DNA of 5,726 nt from a virus. This document shows positions 1 to 5,726 of the stretch, in pieces. A program made the position numbers and the translations under genes. Each line of letters starts with the position of its first letter. The stretch's first letter is position 1. The DNA is taken from positions 1-5,726 of IMG/VR virus record IMGVR_UViG_3300045988_001819. One strand, 5' to 3'. Below the pieces are notes generated by a model. The model did not search any database, was not told the origin of the DNA, and saw only the letters and a list, made by a program, of their open reading frames with translations.

Positions 1-119
1 CTCCTTTCTGTGGTTGATTTGTGCAAATACCACCGGTTCGCCAGCGCTGGAGGCAGAGCATTCCTCCTTTACATTTGGACGCCGGTTCCCCTATGTCAAT
101 TTTACCAAAAAAAAAAAAC
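1..119. repeat. Left copy of the exact 119-nt terminal direct repeat (circular-contig overlap)
   Basis: Base-by-base comparison shows identity with 5608-5726, including the A12 run at 107-118. Confidence 0.95.
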
Positions 120-147
120 GCAAGGTCAACTTTCGTCAACCTCACGT
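107..147 (-). terminator. Intrinsic terminator downstream of the 52-aa acidic ORF
   Basis: The minus-sense RNA reads ACGUGAGGUUGAC-GAAA-GUUGACCUUGCGU followed by a U11-12 run. That is a 13-bp stem with a GNRA loop. Four of the pairs are G-U, which become C-A mismatches on the other strand, so the hairpin only forms well in minus-sense RNA. Confidence 0.8.
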
Positions 148-155
148 TTTTTGGT

Positions 156-314
156 TTATCTTTCGTATTCTTTGAGTTTTTCACAGATTGCGTTTGTCCA
201 TTCGTCATCCATGTTGTACTCTTCTTTTATCTGCTCTCGGTCTTCGCTTTTCCATCCACCGTCATATAGTGCTGCTGCGCAGTTTTCAACTTCTTCTTCA
301 TAGTAGCTTTTCAT
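156..314 (-). CDS. Hypothetical 52-aa highly acidic, aromatic-rich protein (MKSYYEEEVENCAAALYDGGWKSEDREQIKEEYNMDDEWTNAICEKLKEYER)
   Basis: Hand translation runs from ATG 314-312 to TAA 158-156. AGGAGG lies 6 nt upstream of the ATG. The protein has 16 D/E against 7 K/R, and 7 Y/W. It has its own consensus promoter upstream and a strong terminator downstream. It is below the ORF-track size cutoff. Confidence 0.7.
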   Translation of the reverse strand: MKSYYEEEVENCAAALYDGGWKSEDREQIKEEYNMDDEWTNAICEKLKEYER

Positions 315-333
315 GGTGCGCCTCCTATTTTGT

Positions 334-352
334 GGTGTGCTCTTCTTACACC
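334..352 (-). promoter_or_regulatory. Candidate operator: inverted repeat GGTGT-N9-ACACC starting 3 nt downstream of the P1 -10 hexamer
   Basis: Read directly from the sequence. A repeat of the same geometry, AGTGT-N9-ACACT, sits at the same offset from the second promoter (1994-2012). Confidence 0.5.
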
Positions 353-355
353 TTT

Positions 356-384
356 ATTATACACCTAAAACATACACTTGTCAA
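356..384 (-). promoter_or_regulatory. P1: perfect consensus sigma70/sigmaA promoter (TTGACA-17 nt-TATAAT) driving the 52-aa ORF
   Basis: On the minus strand, TTGACA is at 384-379, the spacer is exactly 17 nt, and TATAAT is at 361-356. The promoter is intergenic and has an A-rich tract (GGCAAAATT) upstream. Confidence 0.75.
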
Positions 385-429
385 GTAGAATTTTGCCTAG
401 ATGGCCGTCCGGTCGGCGCTGGTGCGCCG

Positions 430-469
430 AATGAAAAGGACGGCGTAGCTTTCCGTGACTACGCCGTCC
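430..469 (-). terminator. Probable intrinsic terminator after VP4
   Basis: The minus strand reads GGACGGCGTAG-(10-nt loop)-CTACGCCGTCC, a perfect 11-bp GC-rich stem at 438-469. It is followed by TTTTCATTC and lies about 70 nt after the VP4 stop codon. Confidence 0.6.
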
Positions 470-537
470 TGTGTCCTCTATTCTGTCGTTCTTCAGCTTG
501 ACTTGTCTTTTGCTCTGCTTTTTGATCGCTGTGGCCG

Positions 538-1638
538 CTAGATTTCTTCCCGGATAAGCTTCTTAAACCTCTCTTGTATTTTCTGCTCTTCTTTGTTATA
601 ATACTCTTGTATGGTTAAGCCGTTGTTCTTTTGTAGCTTGGCAAAGAATGCGTCGTTGGCTTTTCGGCGTCGTTCTCTTTTTATTGCCTTTAGCTCGCTA
701 GACTCGGCTTTTTCTATTGTCTCTTCGATGCTCTCCATCTCGCTTTCTGTTAGTGGCTTTGCGTTGGAGTGCTCTAAATCAAATAGCTTATCAAAATACC
801 TTGGTGGTTTGCAAATCCTTCCGTTCTTTAGCTGTATCTTATCTCTTTCGTAGATTTCTGCTGCGTGTTCATAGTAATATTGTGCTCCTATTGCTGGCTT
901 TAGGCTCATATTGCACTTTTCCGGCAAAATGCCCATTTCTTCGTAAAATTTTTTTCCTTCCTTTCCGTATACTTTTTTCGTGGTGTATCTTGCTGTATAG
1001 GCCATTGCTTTCCATTCAGCTGGTGCGATGACTACATGACCCTTTCCCCAGATTTTTGTTATCCAATCTACGTTATAATAGACTGCTCCGTTTTTCCTTT
1101 TGTACTCCTTCATGTCGTTTTTTTCAATTGGCAGGTCGTATACGATCGCATGATAATGCGGTCGGTGTGTTTTCCCGCCATATTCCCCGCATTGGAAGTA
1201 CATCAAATTTCCTTTGTTAAGTTCATGGTATTCTAGATACCTTCGCAGTCTTTTCCAGAATGCTTTCATATCTTCATAGTTGAGGCTGTAATTTTCAACA
1301 AGCACTTCGCCTGTTCCTTCGTCCCATGTCATTCGATATGGGACGTTTTCATTGTCGTATGTAAGAGTTAGGAACCACGCATTTTCATGATATGGCAGTT
1401 CCATTTCCATCCTGTTTGCCCAACTGGATGCTGCTGTCATTTTGCACGCTGGACAGTGTCCGCATGGTAATAGCTGCGCTTCTTCGGTTTTCAACATTTC
1501 CAGAAGCTTCTTCTCTTTGCCGATTTCGCCTTTTTTGCTGTTGCCGTTTTGGTAGTATTTACCAGTTCTGGACAGGTACGCTTTTAGTGATATGATCTGT
1601 CCGGTGTTGAGTCGTACGAGTGGTCTTGTACATGACAT
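538..1638 (-). CDS. VP4: Replication initiation protein VP4 (HUH rolling-circle endonuclease, phiX174 gpA-like superfamily)
   Basis: Rolling-circle Rep motifs are visible: FLTLTYD (motif I), HYHAIVY (HUH, codons at 1150-1158) and AYTARYTTKK (paired Tyr codons at 997-999 and 985-987). A CGHCPAC...W.NR cysteine cluster matches what I recall for gokushovirus VP4. I place the start at ATG 1638 (MSCTRPL...). The in-frame GTG at 1653 given in the ORF track is an alternative. Confidence 0.92.
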   Translation of the reverse strand: MSCTRPLVRLNTGQIISLKAYLSRTGKYYQNGNSKKGEIGKEKKLLEMLKTEEAQLLPCGHCPACKMTAASSWANRMEMELPYHENAWFLTLTYDNENVPYRMTWDEGTGEVLVENYSLNYEDMKAFWKRLRRYLEYHELNKGNLMYFQCGEYGGKTHRPHYHAIVYDLPIEKNDMKEYKRKNGAVYYNVDWITKIWGKGHVVIAPAEWKAMAYTARYTTKKVYGKEGKKFYEEMGILPEKCNMSLKPAIGAQYYYEHAAEIYERDKIQLKNGRICKPPRYFDKLFDLEHSNAKPLTESEMESIEETIEKAESSELKAIKRERRRKANDAFFAKLQKNNGLTIQEYYNKEEQKIQERFKKLIREEI

Positions 1639-1659
1639 ATAGTTTCGCTGCACCTTCCC

Positions 1660-1706
1660 GTCACCTAGCCCCTATAACCTTCTTGATGTTATAGGGGCTA
1701 GGTGAC
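1660..1706. other. Perfect 19-bp inverted repeat with a 9-nt loop, immediately upstream of the VP4 translation start
   Basis: GTCACCTAGCCCCTATAAC (1660-1678) pairs with GTTATAGGGGCTAGGTGAC (1688-1706). The loop is CTTCTTGAT on the plus strand and ATCAAGAAG on the gene-sense strand. No U-run follows it on the gene-sense strand. Confidence 0.85.
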
Positions 1707-1752
1707 ACAATTTTTAGCTGCCGCCCAAAAAACCTAATGGATAAATGTTGCA

Positions 1753-1780
1753 GAAGTGACCGAGTTCGCTCGGTCACTTC
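1753..1780. other. Perfect 12-bp stem-loop overlapping the stop codon of the RHH gene
   Basis: GAAGTGACCGAG-TTCG-CTCGGTCACTTC. In gene-sense RNA it is followed by UGCAACAUUUAUCC, a poor U-tract, so it is at best a weak terminator or attenuator. On the plus strand it is followed by GTTTCTTT. Confidence 0.8.
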
Positions 1781-1977
1781 GTTTCTTTGAGCTTCCACTT
1801 ATTGGCGAATGTGTATCCCGTTTCCTTTTCGCAGTAGCATACTATTGCTTCTCGTATGATGTCGCTGGTGGTCATCTTCTGCCCCCTGTTCATCATTTCG
1901 TGTTCGAGACTTTCTAGTGCTACCTGCTCTCTGTCGGTAAGATTGACATTAAATCTCTTCGTGATCTGCGTTCTCAT
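1774..1977 (-). CDS. Ribbon-helix-helix (CopG/Arc/MetJ-type) DNA-binding protein, 67 aa; putative transcriptional repressor
   Basis: The sequence reads as strand-helix-turn-helix. KRFNVNLT has the alternating beta-strand pattern, DREQVALESLEHEMM would be helix 1, a G-containing turn follows, and TSDIIREAIVCY would be helix 2. This compares with CopG KRLTITLSESVLENLEKMAREMGLSKSAMISVALENY. AGGAGG lies 5 nt upstream of ATG 1977. The gene has its own near-consensus promoter. Confidence 0.7.
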   Translation of the reverse strand: MRTQITKRFNVNLTDREQVALESLEHEMMNRGQKMTTSDIIREAIVCYCEKETGYTFANKWKLKETK

Positions 1978-1993
1978 ACTAGCCTCCTAGCTA

Positions 1994-2012
1994 AGTGTGT
2001 GATTGGTACACT
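1994..2012 (-). promoter_or_regulatory. Candidate operator: inverted repeat AGTGT-N9-ACACT starting 3 nt downstream of the P2 -10 hexamer
   Basis: Arm length, spacing and offset match the P1 repeat at 334-352. The arms differ by a paired G-to-A and C-to-T change that keeps the symmetry. Confidence 0.5.
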
Positions 2013-2015
2013 CAT

Positions 2016-2044
2016 AATATACACCTCTTTTCTCCACTTGTCAA
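2016..2044 (-). promoter_or_regulatory. P2: near-consensus promoter (TTGACA-17 nt-TATATT) driving the RHH gene and probably VP4
   Basis: On the minus strand, TTGACA is at 2044-2039, the spacer is 17 nt, and TATATT is at 2021-2016. It begins 5 nt after the VP2 stop codon. It matches P1 at 27 of 38 positions from the -35 onward (hand count). Confidence 0.7.
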
Positions 2045-2049
2045 CTATT

Positions 2050-2988
2050 TTATGGAAGCATCGGAAGACCCGGCAGTAAGTTGAATTGGCCTTTTGCTCC
2101 AAGGCCTGCGTCAAGTCGCCCTTCGTTCTTGAACTGGTGACCTTCGGTTTTCTGTTCCTGCTGTGTGGTGCTGTCCATCCGCTCACCCAGCTGGCCAACG
2201 GTTTTTGCGCTGCTGCTTACGGTTTGCTGTTGCATCTGTTCGAGGTGCTCAGCTGTCCAGTAGTCAGAACTTTGTTTCGCGTTGTTGATGGCCGTTTGAA
2301 AGTTCTGCACGATCTGTGCGGTGTTGTTGCCGTAGTCATACATTGCCTGCATGGTTGCGTTTTTGGCTGCTGGTGCTGCCAGAGCTTGAGCGTGTGCGAA
2401 GGTCTGACCGCCACCGAGACTTCCATAGCCTCCTGATGGCGTTTGTGCCCCATAGCCGTTATAGGCTGCTAAGATAGGATTCAATCCCGCTGCTTTAAGG
2501 TCTGCCACGCCTCTCTGATAGCTGGTATTGGCCATTCTCTCTTGCCAGTTTCTTTGTTTTTGGGCTTCAGCGGAGTTGTATCGCATTGCGCTGCTTTGGC
2601 TCGCTGCGCTCATTGCATTGGATGCTAGAGCGTTTCCCATGTTGAGAAGATTGCTCATCATCCATGTACCGGTCTGCAAGTCGTTGGCAGTTTTTGCGTT
2701 CGCTGCGTTGAAGTCCGCTGCGGTTTGAGCATTGTTGCCGGTCGGCGTTCCGAGTGCTGTTGCCAGCAGATTTCCCAGTGCGCTTGTGTTGCCGGTCTGG
2801 ACGCTCCCACCTGCGCTTGTAGTGTCCTGTGCGGTGCTTCCCATGGTTGTACCGCTCTGGATAGTCGAGTTCATACTACCCTGCGTTTTGGCGCTGCTGG
2901 TGCTTCCTTTGATTGCGCTGTAGATTCCATACAGTGTGTTTGCCAGAGTTAGGCCGCCTTTGACAAGGCCCATTAGCCCGATTGCCAT
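2050..2988 (-). CDS. VP2: Minor capsid / DNA pilot protein VP2
   Basis: The N-terminus is Gly-rich and hydrophobic (MAIGLMGLVKGGLTLANTLYGIY), and the middle is a long A/G/S/T/Q-rich segment. I recognise the block NSAEAQKQRNWQERMANTSYQRGVADLKAAGLNPILA as the conserved core of gokushovirus VP2. GGAGG lies 7 nt upstream of the ATG. The gene immediately follows VP1. Confidence 0.85.
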   Translation of the reverse strand: MAIGLMGLVKGGLTLANTLYGIYSAIKGSTSSAKTQGSMNSTIQSGTTMGSTAQDTTSAGGSVQTGNTSALGNLLATALGTPTGNNAQTAADFNAANAKTANDLQTGTWMMSNLLNMGNALASNAMSAASQSSAMRYNSAEAQKQRNWQERMANTSYQRGVADLKAAGLNPILAAYNGYGAQTPSGGYGSLGGGQTFAHAQALAAPAAKNATMQAMYDYGNNTAQIVQNFQTAINNAKQSSDYWTAEHLEQMQQQTVSSSAKTVGQLGERMDSTTQQEQKTEGHQFKNEGRLDAGLGAKGQFNLLPGLPMLP

Positions 2989-3000
2989 TGCGCTTCCTCC

Positions 3001-4623
3001 TTAGATGGTATCAAGGCCCGGGATGCTGTAGATAGGCATTGCCCTTGTCCACGTCTGGTCGAAGTAGAAGTTGCAGATAAATTGACGGGATTTGTCGCTC
3101 TGAATTGCGATAGTCCGGTCAATGTTTTCCGTGCCCTCTTTAATCCAGTCGCTCGAGAGAGTTGGGAGACTCGTATACTTGTCCGCGTAGTGCCACGCGT
3201 CCAAGGTCTGCGTGTAAGTGCTGCGCATTTCTCCCGTTATCATGTTTGTTCGGTACCTATAGTCGGCCCAGGCCTCCTGGTACCCAAACACCTCCTCGTC
3301 TTTTGCGTTGCCTTGTGCGTAGATCTCCTGATTGAGTACTGCTTGTTCTCCGAGGTTTGCAAGCATTGGGTCATAGTAGGAAAAGCGTGTGCTGCGTGTC
3401 CACATTCGAGAAAGGCCCTGCTGATAGCTGTGATCAACTCGCACCGCTGCCAGACCGATGATGAAGCCATGCTCCGTTGCGCTGTACGTTGCCATGTTCC
3501 GGCTCATCGTGGTCATGGAGAATGCTGCTGTGTTGCCCTGCGGACTTGTTGAATCCGTGCTGGATGTCTGAATGACCTGATTGATGTTGATAGGCAGTCT
3601 ATACCCGCCGATGTATTCCGATCGGTCAAGCCGTGCATCTGGACTGGTGACGCCCCAAGCTCCTTGCAGGATTTCCTTGTACCGCGTGCCGGTGCGTGCA
3701 TCTCTCTCTAAGATATGCTGTACTGCGATAGCCTGCCGCAGCTCGTTGATGGTCGCGGCTGTTACGTTGCTCATGTCTGCGCCAAGTACTGGGTGCAGGC
3801 TATCGTCTCTTTCGGTGTATACCTGTGCTGGTTTCGCTCCGCTTGTTTTGTCTCCGTTTACGCCTGCAAAGTAAGGGATGAAGTTTGTTATTAAGTTTAG
3901 GTCTGTGTTGTCCAGTTTTTCTTTGAGGCTTGCTGTGCCGTATCCATAAATCGGCGCCGCTCCTGTCATCGGCAGCGTCACTCCCTCGCCTTTCTGAGGA
4001 CTCGGTAAGCAGCTCGTGTAGTAATCTTTGTATTTACAGACTTTGAGCGGCAGGCCTCCGGCTTCGGCGTCGGTGAGTGCCGTTCCTGCGTTGCTTCCTG
4101 CGGTCGTGGCGTCTGATTTGCTCATCGTGACAGGCTGCTGCAGATTTTCGTCTCGAAACCATTCGTTCCAGATTTTGGCATAGGCCCTGAAAGGCAAGCT
4201 GTTCACCTGAAGGTTTTCTACTCCGGTCGGAATGCCGAAGTAATCCGCCAGCGTGCCCACTTTCCAGCCTCCGGCCGGTGCGGTCGTTTTCGGAGTCGTG
4301 TACTCTACCGTTTCCGCCCAGAAGGTCGAGTCGTTCTGGCCCATGAGATTTTCGAAGTGCTCCCACAGCAGCCGCGACGGCACGAAGAAGAAGTAAAAGT
4401 CACAGTAGCAGTTATCCATGACAGGATACAGCGGTGTGCTCATACGCATCAGAGCATTCAGATCGATCTTTGCCGTGTCTGCCGGGAGTACCTCATCACA
4501 GTAGATCGGGACGAGATCACCCTCATTCATCGTGGTCAGGAGAGAATAGTCTCGTTTGAAGCGTGCGCGCGGCACGTTTGCATGAGGCACTTGGCTGTAG
4601 TGTTGTTCAGCGTTGCGGTTCAT
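3001..4623 (-). CDS. VP1: Major capsid protein VP1 (Microviridae F-type jelly-roll capsid)
   Basis: The 540-aa protein carries family hallmarks. These are the N-terminus ...RARFKRDYSLLTTMNEGDLVPIYCDEVLPADT, then CKYKDYYTSCLPSPQKG, TINELRQAIAVQHILERDARTGTRYKEILQGAWGV and SEYIGG. A segment of about 80 aa between PQKG and TINELR fits the gokushovirus insertion loop. Confidence 0.95.
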   Translation of the reverse strand: MNRNAEQHYSQVPHANVPRARFKRDYSLLTTMNEGDLVPIYCDEVLPADTAKIDLNALMRMSTPLYPVMDNCYCDFYFFFVPSRLLWEHFENLMGQNDSTFWAETVEYTTPKTTAPAGGWKVGTLADYFGIPTGVENLQVNSLPFRAYAKIWNEWFRDENLQQPVTMSKSDATTAGSNAGTALTDAEAGGLPLKVCKYKDYYTSCLPSPQKGEGVTLPMTGAAPIYGYGTASLKEKLDNTDLNLITNFIPYFAGVNGDKTSGAKPAQVYTERDDSLHPVLGADMSNVTAATINELRQAIAVQHILERDARTGTRYKEILQGAWGVTSPDARLDRSEYIGGYRLPININQVIQTSSTDSTSPQGNTAAFSMTTMSRNMATYSATEHGFIIGLAAVRVDHSYQQGLSRMWTRSTRFSYYDPMLANLGEQAVLNQEIYAQGNAKDEEVFGYQEAWADYRYRTNMITGEMRSTYTQTLDAWHYADKYTSLPTLSSDWIKEGTENIDRTIAIQSDKSRQFICNFYFDQTWTRAMPIYSIPGLDTI

Positions 4624-5116
4624 TCCTTATTTTCTCCTTTCTGCACAGTTTCATCTGTGCCAGGATTGGGCTTTTTTGTTCATCCTGCTGAATTTTGATG
4701 CCCATCTTGTTTAGCCATTCTTTTTCACCGGCTGTTGCCATCCAGTTTTCGAAGTTCATACCGAAAGCCTGACGAATATTCAGCGGAAGCTGATTGAACT
4801 GCTCCCGTTTCTCGTTCATCATGTTCATGTATTCGGTGTAGGTCTGCGGTAGTTTGCTGGTGTCGATGTACCATCCCGGTTTTGCCAGTACACTTTCGTC
4901 GCCGGCAGCGTACCGGCTCAGAATTGCCATGACGTCGCATTCGTCTTTATAGCTCTGGATTTTCTCGTAGGTGTCCACTTCGCCCACCTTTTCCAGATAT
5001 GGCTGCCCTCGGTCGTCATACCGTTCTTTGTATTCCGGTTCAAACCTGTTGCCCGGCTCGTTCGGCAGCGCCAGCGGTTTTTCGTCCTCGTAGGGTTTAA
5101 AGATTCTTACTCCCAT
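4607..5116 (-). CDS. VP3: Internal scaffolding protein VP3
   Basis: The 169-aa protein sits directly upstream of VP1 and overlaps its start by 17 nt. The motifs YKDECDVMAILSRY and QLPLNIRQAFGMNFENWM match my recollection of the Chlamydia-phage-type scaffold family. GGAG lies 7 nt upstream of the ATG. Confidence 0.8.
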   Translation of the reverse strand: MGVRIFKPYEDEKPLALPNEPGNRFEPEYKERYDDRGQPYLEKVGEVDTYEKIQSYKDECDVMAILSRYAAGDESVLAKPGWYIDTSKLPQTYTEYMNMMNEKREQFNQLPLNIRQAFGMNFENWMATAGEKEWLNKMGIKIQQDEQKSPILAQMKLCRKEKIRNEPQR

Positions 5117-5360
5117 TGAGCTGCTCCTTTTTCATGAGTTCGATATTGTACATGAGCATCGGCAGCGCCAGCGGCTTGATCTGGCCGCTTTCGTTGTCGT
5201 ACTTGCCCAGAAGATAGACCCGCTTATCCTCGCAGTCGGCTTTCTCCATTTCCTGTGCCATCCATCTGAAGGTGCGGTCGGCTACCTTTTCATTGACCAC
5301 TATCAGATTGCCGAAGATGCCAGATAGTTCGTCTTTTACTGCGTATACCTGAAATTCCAT
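5097..5360 (-). CDS. Conserved small non-structural protein (gokushovirus ORF5/VP5-type, function uncertain)
   Basis: The 87-aa sequence MEFQVYAVKDELSGIFGNLI...ADRTFRWM...YLLGKYDNESGQI fits a pattern I recall from this family: V-Y/F-x-V-x-D-x-K/L-x-G-x-F-G, then A-x-R-x-F, then L-G-x-Y/F-D-x-x-x-G. GGAG lies 7 nt upstream of the ATG. It overlaps the VP3 start by 20 nt. Confidence 0.55.
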   Translation of the reverse strand: MEFQVYAVKDELSGIFGNLIVVNEKVADRTFRWMAQEMEKADCEDKRVYLLGKYDNESGQIKPLALPMLMYNIELMKKEQLNGSKNL

Positions 5361-5372
5361 GATGATTCTCCT

Positions 5373-5492
5373 TTACAGACGGATGCCGCCGCGCGACGGC
5401 TTCGGGTTGATGTTGATTTTCTTTGTCTTTTTTGCGGTGTTGGTAAACACTCGCTTATCCTTTTTCGGATTGACCGGCATTCTGTGAGCCAT
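5373..5492 (-). CDS. Small basic DNA-binding/packaging protein (phiX174 J-like, gokushovirus ORF8-type), 39 aa: MAHRMPVNPKKDKRVFTNTAKKTKKININPKPSRGGIRL
   Basis: Hand translation runs from ATG 5492-5490 to TAA 5375-5373. The protein has 12 K/R in 39 aa and a C-terminal RGGIRL. AAGGAGG lies upstream (GGAGG 8 nt from the ATG). It is below the ORF-track cutoff. Confidence 0.7.
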   Translation of the reverse strand: MAHRMPVNPKKDKRVFTNTAKKTKKININPKPSRGGIRL

Positions 5493-5599
5493 TATTTATC
5501 CTCCTTATCCAGTCCCATGGCGTGATAGATCTTGTCCAGCATCGCAAGGATCTTCCTTAACTGATTAAAAATTCCGCGGATGTCTTTCAAAGTGATCAT
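5492..5599 (-). CDS. Hypothetical 35-aa protein (MITLKDIRGIFNQLRKILAMLDKIYHAMGLDKEDK), translationally coupled to the J-like gene
   Basis: ATG 5599-5597 is preceded by AGGAGG at 7 nt. Its stop codon overlaps the next start as TAATG. The sequence looks like one amphipathic helix. No homology is recognisable by eye. Confidence 0.45.
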   Translation of the reverse strand: MITLKDIRGIFNQLRKILAMLDKIYHAMGLDKEDK

Positions 5600-5607
5600 G
5601 GCAGCAC

Positions 5608-5726
5608 CTCCTTTCTGTGGTTGATTTGTGCAAATACCACCGGTTCGCCAGCGCTGGAGGCAGAGCATTCCTCCTTTACATTTGGACGCCGGTTCCCCTA
5701 TGTCAATTTTACCAAAAAAAAAAAAC
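5608..5726. repeat. Right copy of the exact 119-nt terminal direct repeat (circular-contig overlap)
   Basis: Identical to 1-119. It begins inside the Shine-Dalgarno region of the 35-aa ORF and ends after the A12 run. Confidence 0.95.
5678..5706 (-). promoter_or_regulatory. Weak candidate promoter P3 ahead of the structural operon (equivalent to 71-99)
   Basis: On the minus strand, TTGACA (5706-5701) sits just downstream of the T12 run and GGTAAAA, which could act as an UP element. The hexamer 17 nt downstream is AAATGT, only 2/6 to TATAAT. Confidence 0.25.

Follow-up and report, generated by a model that had tools for sequence, protein, structure and literature searches.

The window analysed here (the whole 5,726-nt stretch, positions 1 to 5,726 of IMG/VR record IMGVR_UViG_3300045988_001819) is a complete gokushovirus-type microvirus, and what concerns us in it is the region where a small gene for a probable ribbon-helix-helix (RHH) DNA-binding protein precedes VP4, the gene of the rolling-circle replication initiator (Rep). 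The two ends of the window form an exact terminal repeat of 119 nt (1..119 = 5608..5726), an assembly overlap, and the genome is thus a circle of 5607 nt. The minus strand carries every gene: VP5, the VP3 scaffold, the VP1 capsid protein, the VP2 pilot protein, a 67-aa open reading frame (ORF) and VP4. This content (VP1 with Phage_F, VP3 with Chlamy_scaf, VP5 with Phage_ORF5, together with VP2 and a VP4 Rep, all encoded in the same direction in a circular genome of about 5.6 kb) is of the Gokushovirinae type, and the closest public records are gokushoviruses of the pig and human gut, at about 80% nucleotide identity. We compared the window with 34 relatives, nine of them obtained by exact-protein look-up and from GenBank and 25 from IMG/VR, which makes 35 genomes with the window itself; ten additional IMG/VR genomes were found through the hairpin motif described below. 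Promoters were scanned with the sigma-70 consensus TTGACA/TATAAT and scored as matches out of 12.

The region opens with a strong promoter, P2 (2044..2016, minus strand), in which the -35 hexamer TTGACA (2044..2039) and the -10 hexamer TATATT (2021..2016) are separated by a 17-nt spacer and together score 11/12. A Shine-Dalgarno (SD) sequence, AGGAGG (1988..1983, minus strand; AGGAGG, AGGAG or AAGGGG in relatives), lies 5 nt 5' of the ATG (1977) of the 67-aa ORF (1977..1774, minus strand); a spacer of 135 nt follows and then VP4 (1638..538, minus strand). P2 scores 10-12/12 at the orthologous position in all 35 genomes and in nine of the ten additional ones, and when its 32 unique sequences are aligned the columns TTGA.A and GGTGTATA are invariant. 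The window holds two coding-strand sites of at least 11/12, against a mean of 0.027 in 300 shuffles, so these promoter features go beyond chance. The order VP2, P2, RHH gene, spacer (94-149 nt) and VP4 recurs in every relative examined, the ten additional genomes included, and even the most distant family member (P0062; L225), a 5.4-kb microvirus, has its RHH gene in the same place. A preliminary description of this locus had listed P2, the 67-aa ORF, a hairpin at its stop codon and VP4, and all are present on the minus strand where it put them. The succession of promoter, RHH gene, HUH Rep gene and terminator is kept in all relatives examined, up to the most distant member, and these therefore show the pairing of RHH and Rep genes that it proposed to seek in other microvirus genomes.

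VP4 encodes a 366-aa HUH rolling-circle replication initiator with the motifs HYHAIVY (the HUH motif) and YTARY. At E<=0.1 the sole Pfam family that it matches is PF23343 (REP_ORF2-G2P; E=3e-17), and its best PHROG is phrog_942 (E=2e-93), both of them microviral Rep families. The start of VP4 is the conserved ATG at 1638 (ATGTCATGYAC), as annotated in MG945186 and KX513873; the GTG at 1653 is not conserved among relatives and was discarded as a start. The VP4 SD, GGGAAGG (1659..1653), abuts a hairpin of the spacer (hairpin B, below). Residues 1..55 (1638..1474) form an N-terminal extension present in this and the L185/L193 clade and absent from most of the 3438 GenBank VP4 homologues, most of whose alignments begin at residue 56-57.

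With a median pairwise dN/dS of 0.15, the 67-aa ORF behaves as a protein under purifying selection and is thus a real gene. It has 22 homologues at 54-94% identity in a collection of 5.8 billion proteins, nearly all from contigs of 5.5-5.8 kb, and a profile search of 1.84 billion representative proteins returned only 41 clusters (at 50% identity), with the common signature MKSQxxKRININLT ... SDIIRDAI. All of the 45-plus family members whose genomic context can be read are microviral. Four of the 3438 GenBank phage records with a VP4 homologue encode the 67-aa protein, which is annotated in none of the four. No RHH-like ORF was found 5' of VP4 in 19 representative genomes of other clades, nor in Dulem virus 156.

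The predicted fold begins with a beta-strand (KRFNVNLT), followed by a helix at residues 15-30 and a second one at 37-53 that begins TSDIIREAI. Within the strand, K7, R8, N10 and N12 are invariant in close relatives, and R8, N10 and N12 nearly so across the whole family. AlphaFold2, given a 50-sequence alignment, returned a model with a pLDDT of 82 in which an extended segment (6-14) precedes helices 15-30 and 37-53, and both AlphaFold2 models that we built (pLDDT 72 and 82) have the RHH topology of an extended N-terminal segment and then two helices; a model of the monomer would not be expected to show the strand itself. Among the family members, RHH_1 (the CopG family) is the commonest Pfam match, found in 13 of the 42 and staying under the gathering score even at its best E of 1.1e-4, and CcdA, 56B_RHH and DUF6290 are matched by single members. 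Searched against PDB, the family profile finds TTHA0139 (E=0.002) and ParD (E=0.36), and hhalign places the family on CopG with E=1e-4 and a probability of 58% in the correct register, strand on strand and helix on helix. These family-level lines are individually weak, yet they are concordant, and we consider it very probable that the 67-aa protein is an RHH protein. The assignment to this fold thus draws on family-level evidence; the window protein taken alone reaches no database threshold, with no significant phmmer match in PDB, a best PHROG at E=0.029 and a CopG-like PHROG at E=0.065.

An acidic C-terminal tail, (D/E)(D/E)DLPF, is present in several family members (P0042, P0044, P0046, P0056, P0058, the L001 and L002 ORFs and L124, as well as those of MG945186 and KX513873) and lacking in the window protein. 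This tail resembles the C-terminal tip of the bacterial single-stranded DNA-binding protein (SSB), DDDIPF, and it could link those members to host replication or repair factors. The RHH gene also occurs in tandem duplicate (L124, two paralogues), or with its domain duplicated in frame within one ORF (L125), in both cases behind a promoter with the boxes described next.

P2 carries a set of operator-like repeats (2037..1995, minus strand). These are a degenerate GTGGA (2037..2033), a GTGTA lying over the -10 (2024..2020), a second GTGTA at about +1 (2011..2007) and, in inverted orientation, CACAC (1999..1995). The direct boxes follow each other every 13 bp, and 3' of its -35 hexamer P2 reads aGTGGAgaaaagaGGTGTATATTatgaGTGTAccaatcaCACAC. 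Over the 32 unique P2 sequences, GGTGTATA and ATGxGTGTA are invariant although dS among these genomes reaches 2.5, and L006 and L008 have a perfect GTGTA-N7-TACAC at this place. In fact, the only other strong promoter in the genome carries the same boxes. P1 (384..356, or 384..347 with its boxes, minus strand) lies just 3' of the VP4 terminator and is a 12/12 match (TTGACA-17-TATAAT); it reads TTGACAaGTGTAtgttttaGGTGTATAATaaaGGTGTA, with three exact GTGTA boxes (377..373, 364..360 and 351..347) again spaced by 13 bp. P1 and P2 together account for five of the six GTGTA sites that the minus strand of the window has. In the related genomes, boxed P1 scores 12/12 in 25 of 34 and 10-11/12 in three more, and it is absent in six.

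The boxes go together with the gene. In a control set of about 30 related gokushoviruses without the RHH gene, strong promoters (at least 11/12) have an ordinary -10 of the TGnTATAAT type and no GTGTA boxes, and both promoters are boxed in L176, the one genome of the set that does carry the RHH gene. GTGTA boxes were found in every genome with the RHH gene, a strict co-occurrence. A distant genome, L114 (IMGVR_UViG_3300045988_123112; VP4 35% identical), has at the equivalent position an unrelated RHH-like ORF of 58 aa (TTIRLTDHQEKIVQEYMSMAGISKNQAIGELIEKG), and its layout runs from a 12/12 promoter through this ORF and a ATCAAGAGA hairpin to VP4. There the -10 is enclosed by the arms of an inverted repeat that is perfect over 8 bp and differs from the GTGTA boxes, CTGTATTC...GAATACAG. 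The L114 ORF has only weak Pfam matches in the RHH clan (DUF6290, NikA-like) and no match among GenBank phages. With its other RHH-like ORF and its other repeat, L114 suggests that regulator and boxes change together. RHH homodimers read the major groove of repeated operator half-sites with their paired beta-strands. Candidates for both partners are present here, the GTGTA boxes as half-sites and, alongside these invariant boxes, the invariant strand residues K7, R8, N10 and N12. We regard the GTGTA boxes as the candidate operator of the RHH protein, to which it would bind, and the earlier proposal that Rep synthesis may be autoregulated gains support from boxes that are invariant and strictly co-occur with the RHH gene.

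Would RHH gene and VP4 be expressed together? On the minus strand between the RHH stop (1774) and the VP4 start there is no site of at least 9/12, and the best one, with spacers of 15-19 nt allowed, scores 8/12, which is background; the statement that no convincing promoter lies here has held up well. No promoter-like spacer element of conserved position was found among the related genomes, nor does any hairpin of the RHH-VP4 spacer, in the window or in the 34 relatives, lead into a U-tract. Beyond VP4, T2 (470..437, minus strand), a 13-bp GC-rich hairpin followed by TTTTCATT, is the likely 3' end of an RHH-VP4 transcript, and a simple scan found a GGACGGCGTAG...CTACGCCGTCC hairpin with a T-rich tail 3' of VP4 in 13 of the 34 related genomes. 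Gokushovirus clades without the RHH gene have no promoter of at least 10/12 within 700 nt 5' of VP4, except for two 10/12 sites at different positions. Because neither a promoter nor an intrinsic terminator separates the RHH gene from VP4, co-transcription from P2 is the simplest reading, and the two genes most probably share one transcript.

The spacer, rightly described before as free of promoters and terminators, contains elements of another kind, among them a conserved block and a second hairpin that had been overlooked. Hairpin A (1780..1753) overlaps the RHH stop codon, with a 12-bp stem and a GCGA-type loop; the sense strand continues TGCAACATTT and, as already noted in the preliminary description, has no U-tract, and the terminator-like score that this hairpin obtains in the scan is on the plus strand only. 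Its structure is kept with compensatory changes in L001, L007, L009 and L010, replaced by another hairpin in L006, L008 and L013, and absent in L003, L004 and L005; hairpin A is therefore dispensable. It is followed by the block GCAACATTTATCCAT (1751..1737, minus strand) and a T-run (1732..1727). The block, which matches no promoter or terminator pattern, is kept in most relatives even without hairpin A, and the T-run is missing in L005 and L008.

Hairpin B (1706..1660), the second hairpin between the RHH gene and VP4, has a perfect stem of 19 bp and a 9-nt loop, ATCAAGAAG (on the plus strand CTTCTTGAT), and the plus strand of this region carries CTTCTTGATG. Owing to this hairpin, the folding z-score of the spacer is -9.85 against shuffles. 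Across eight sequences, double compensatory changes occur in 6 of 21 pairs, and the covarying pairs of the main stem are of Watson-Crick types only; the loop stays invariant (ATCAAGARG) even in L014, L023 and L029, where the stem is wholly different. Two other candidates in this interval were rejected. A 45-aa ORF across the spacer (1798..1661) has no SD, its conservation is that of the hairpin DNA and stem covariation alters its residues, and a longer pairing, in which the SD and the start codon of VP4 would be occluded, is predicted in the window alone and lost in the alignment fold.

Relative to the genes, the element occurs in both orientations, being inverted in distant gokushoviruses. 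The coding strand of Dulem virus 156 (L035, about 2437..2480) reads GTTAAC-aCTCTTGAT-GTTAAC; Chp2 (L154, about 2903..2940) has CTTGAT once in its genome, on the coding strand, where it forms the loop of a hairpin with a 14-bp stem. We surveyed hairpin orientation and VP1 third codon positions in 122 non-redundant genomes, using strict hairpin criteria. The CTTGAT loop is on the non-coding strand in 59 genomes, the window included, all of which have A>T at third positions (T3 0.10-0.17), and on the coding strand in 25, Chp2 included, all of which have T>A (T3 0.41-0.61). The 38 genomes without a hairpin by these criteria divide into 28 with A>T, phiMH2K among them, and 10 with T>A, SpV4 among them. 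For the window VP1, T3 = 0.14, A3 = 0.22, C3 = 0.36 and G3 = 0.27. Orientation matches the sign of the third-codon AT skew in 84 of 84 genomes, with no intermediates and a bimodal T3; the number of independent orientation flips behind this match is judged to be small. Since orientation tracks strand composition and both orientations occur, hairpin B acts at the DNA level as an origin-like element, and it is a good candidate for, and probably is, a replication-origin element. A primary role as an mRNA element (attenuator or stabiliser) is ruled out by the existence of both orientations relative to the genes.

Phages with single-stranded DNA (ssDNA) genomes are known to favour NNT codons, a mark of the C-to-T bias to which the genome is subject in its single-stranded state (PMC3278643). 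In the class of the window, the CTTGAT strand and the T-rich, C-poor signature are both on the strand complementary to the genes, and by composition the same is true of phiMH2K, a phage available in culture. We put forward tentatively, as something short of an even chance, that hairpin B could be a rolling-circle origin on the gene-complementary strand and that in the window clade and the large class of gokushoviruses with an A-rich coding strand it might be the antisense strand that is nicked, displaced and packaged, against the positive-sense genome that textbooks give for Microviridae. The cautious alternative is lineage history together with a mutational bias of unspecified cause. The papers searched yielded nothing of relevance on the origin or the strand polarity of gokushoviruses; hairpin B offers a testable candidate for the former and raises the question of which strand is packaged. 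The T-rich strand of hairpin B has some likeness to the viral-strand origin of phiX174: loop and 3' arm read CTTGATGTTA in the window, CTTGATGTTAA in Dulem-like genomes and CTTGATATTAA in phiX. We confirmed the phiX174 origin CAACTTG/ATATTAATAAC (CAACTTG/ATATTAA) in NC_001422, where rep_origin is annotated at 4306. The likeness is one of sequence only, over about 10 nt, and there are differences as well: the phiX site lies inside gene A and needs no hairpin, whereas the window-clade element is on the non-coding strand.

We propose to read the region as a gokushovirus early operon of two genes. A host sigma-70-type RNA polymerase would start at P2, transcribe the RHH gene, read through the spacer into VP4 and stop at T2. 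Dimers of the RHH protein would bind the GTGTA boxes over the P2 -10 and the transcription start and, once bound, shut off the synthesis of both RHH protein and VP4, a negative feedback that would cap Rep dosage. The RHH protein probably also represses P1, with its three boxes, and so would control the variable accessory gene. Given the same boxes on P1, the regulator probably controls more than Rep dosage; what was described earlier as a circuit for Rep keeps its RHH-Rep operon and loses its restriction to it. And with an origin-like hairpin in the spacer, the cassette would unite a regulator, an origin-like site and an initiator. An autorepressed RHH-VP4 operon is in our view the best reading and, on balance, a probable one, in which we infer co-transcription, DNA binding and repression from sequence features and take the RHH fold as predicted.

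Several observations weigh against it. The window protein has no Pfam match at E<=10, and all fold-level evidence for the 67-aa protein lies below curated thresholds. Foldseek gave no significant match for either model, every E-value being at least 0.9 and TM-scores ranging from 0.43 to 0.49; the better matches include NikR, ParD2, Arc, CdbA, ParD1 and TacA2, which we take to be RHH proteins, and weak E-values are to be expected of a fold of about 50 residues that is formed only by a dimer. RHH operators typically have a spacing of 7-11 bp, and the 13 bp found here is longer. Box 2 is fused with the -10 hexamer, so its conservation could partly reflect promoter function. There is no terminator between VP2 and P2, and upstream read-through can therefore add to VP4 expression. 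The DLPF acidic tail of some members hints at roles other than repression. Finally, the very stable hairpin B, just 5' of the VP4 SD, could uncouple VP4 from RHH expression through RNA processing or translation.

The RHH gene and VP4 may in fact be adjacent and yet not form one expression unit, with VP4 expressed from a promoter invisible to a sigma-70 scan, or from transcripts processed at the hairpins, and Rep dosage not set by the RHH protein. We hold this to be unlikely. True, a spacer of 135 nt with its conserved GCAACATTTATCCAT is long for an operon, many relatives have TTGACA or TTGAGA some 10-20 nt 5' of hairpin B, the 19-bp perfect stem of that hairpin could be a substrate of RNase III, and a site with a good -35 and a poor -10 elsewhere in the genome (about 100..95, conserved in L003) suggests that non-canonical promoters may exist here. 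However, no -10-like hexamer is found 15-19 nt from the TTGACA or TTGAGA of the spacer, and hairpin B, being inverted in other lineages, is not an RNA signal; the clades without the RHH gene, bar the two 10/12 sites, lack a promoter of at least 10/12 within 700 nt of VP4, and the RHH clade always has P2.

To about the same small degree we credit the idea that the RHH protein is mainly a replication accessory, for which GTGTA would serve as iteron-like sites, or which would bind near the origin hairpin, and which would organise or recruit host replication proteins, any effect on P2 being secondary. The RHH gene has both the origin-like hairpin and VP4 for neighbours, a TTGTGTCA motif lies beside hairpin B, the acidic (D/E)DLPF tail of several members, those of MG945186 and KX513873 included, resembles the SSB tip, and L124 has its two tandem paralogues. 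But in both P1 and P2 the boxes fall exactly on the -10 and +1, as a repressor would require, the GGTGTCA beside the hairpin also occurs in lineages without the RHH gene and so is not specific to the RHH protein, and the tail is missing from the window protein. Least probable of all is that the GTGTA boxes are parts of the promoter (a host-specific extended -10 or discriminator) while the RHH protein acts on host genes or a superinfecting phage: box 2 does overlap the -10 in both P1 and P2, which may be duplicates of one ancestral promoter with flanks inherited rather than selected, but RHH-less relatives from similar kinds of sample use an extended -10 of the TGnTATAAT type without GTGTA boxes, and box 3 and the inverted half-site lie 3' of +1, where RNA polymerase makes no sequence-specific contacts.

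An autorepressed RHH-VP4 operon has a counterpart in the streptococcal rolling-circle plasmid pMV158. There one promoter, Pcr, serves copG and repB together and is repressed by CopG, and an antisense RNA, RNAII, made from PctII blocks the translation of repB (PMC5717011, PMC4485353). The phage cassette shares with copG-repB a small RHH gene 5' of an HUH initiator gene on the same strand, one strong promoter before the pair and none between, repeats that overlap this promoter and, presumably, an autorepression that limits Rep. It differs in that its protein relates to CopG at the level of the fold only, its Rep is microviral (PF23343) and that of pMV158 RepB-type, its origin-like hairpin lies between the genes whereas the pMV158 origin is upstream of the operon, and the replicon is a lytic-type phage and not a plasmid. 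CopG binds a 13-bp pseudosymmetric element at the -35; the phage boxes, by contrast, are at -10 and +1 with a 13-bp spacing, and a second promoter, P1, is boxed too.

The antisense arm of pMV158 control has no visible equivalent. No conserved antisense promoter was found near the VP4 start in the 35 genomes. A single antisense site of at least 10/12 occurs there (plus strand 1569..1596, 10/12 with TG), common to the window and L009 alone, and promoter-like sites number 6 against 5.1 expected by chance. A pMV158-like countertranscript of about 190 nt, running over the VP4 start from plus 1569..1596 to hairpin A (1753..1780), was rejected since neither of its signals is conserved; with a site shared only with L009 and a site number at chance level, it is probably fortuitous. 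Without a conserved promoter for a countertranscript, the RNAII arm is missing.

A tblastn search of 72,556 plasmids (PLSDB) with the RHH protein gave no match at E<=1. With no plasmid homologue, a microviral Rep and no antisense promoter, the cassette would work like copG-repB without being a member of that family. Of the pMV158-like logic suggested in the preliminary description, gene order, single promoter and presumed autorepression remain, and CopG homology, a RepB-type Rep and RNAII fall away. That description had left open module exchange with rolling-circle plasmids or convergence; exchange finds no backing in the plasmid search or in a family whose members, where their context was read, are all microviral, and convergence is the more economical reading.

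Other RHH systems offer partial parallels. In the Sulfolobus plasmid pRN1, ORF56, a CopG-like RHH protein, is co-transcribed with the ORF904 replicase and binds its own promoter, so that here too an RHH protein and a downstream replication protein share one operon; pRN1 is, however, an archaeal plasmid, its replicase is a primase-polymerase/helicase and not an HUH nuclease, and there is no sequence relation. RHH dimers of omega (pSM19035) and of Arc and Mnt (phage P22) bind short direct or inverted repeats. Omega controls several promoters through repeat arrays, as we propose for P1 and P2, and Arc and Mnt are examples of phage-encoded RHH repressors. The differences lie in the contiguous 7-bp heptads of omega and the two half-sites of Arc, about 11 bp apart, and in that omega, Arc and Mnt have no known linkage to an HUH Rep gene and none is known from an ssDNA phage.

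Microviruses are the textbook minimal phages, and for phiX174 no regulation is known beyond that by fixed promoters, terminators and mRNA stability. We know of no microvirus with a described transcription factor, and a literature search for RHH, CopG, a repressor or a transcription regulator in Microviridae found nothing relevant; a survey of 13,000 microvirus genomes mentions no regulators (PMC9239249). If our reading is true, a gokushovirus clade of the gut would provide Microviridae with their first predicted transcription factor circuit, and replication under feedback control, as in rolling-circle plasmids, would extend even to ssDNA phages of 5.6 kb. A class of small ORFs that now go unannotated would gain a function, and a very small, portable pair of repressor and operator would become available. 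Moreover, if hairpin B is an origin, the RHH-origin-Rep cassette would be a compact, self-regulated replicon of plasmid type.

The rest of the genome offers some further observations. P1 precedes a small acidic ORF of 52 aa (314..156, minus strand) and then a very strong terminator (152..113; an 18-bp stem followed by T12). Unrelated small ORFs follow P1 in different relatives, the P1 cassette being missing from 6 of 34, and it looks like a regulated accessory-gene slot. Directly after this terminator, at minus 100..95 (= 5707..5702), comes a site with a perfect -35 hexamer and a poor -10, TTGACA-taggggaaccggcgtcc-AAATGT-aaaggagg, conserved in L003. This site (95..100, minus strand) may be the promoter of the structural genes, perhaps an activator-dependent one. 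The terminal repeat affects ORF calls across 1..119 / 5608..5726, and what appears as a 58-aa ORF (5668..5492) is more probably a 35-aa gene that starts at the ATG at 5599, followed by a 39-aa basic J/VP8-like gene.

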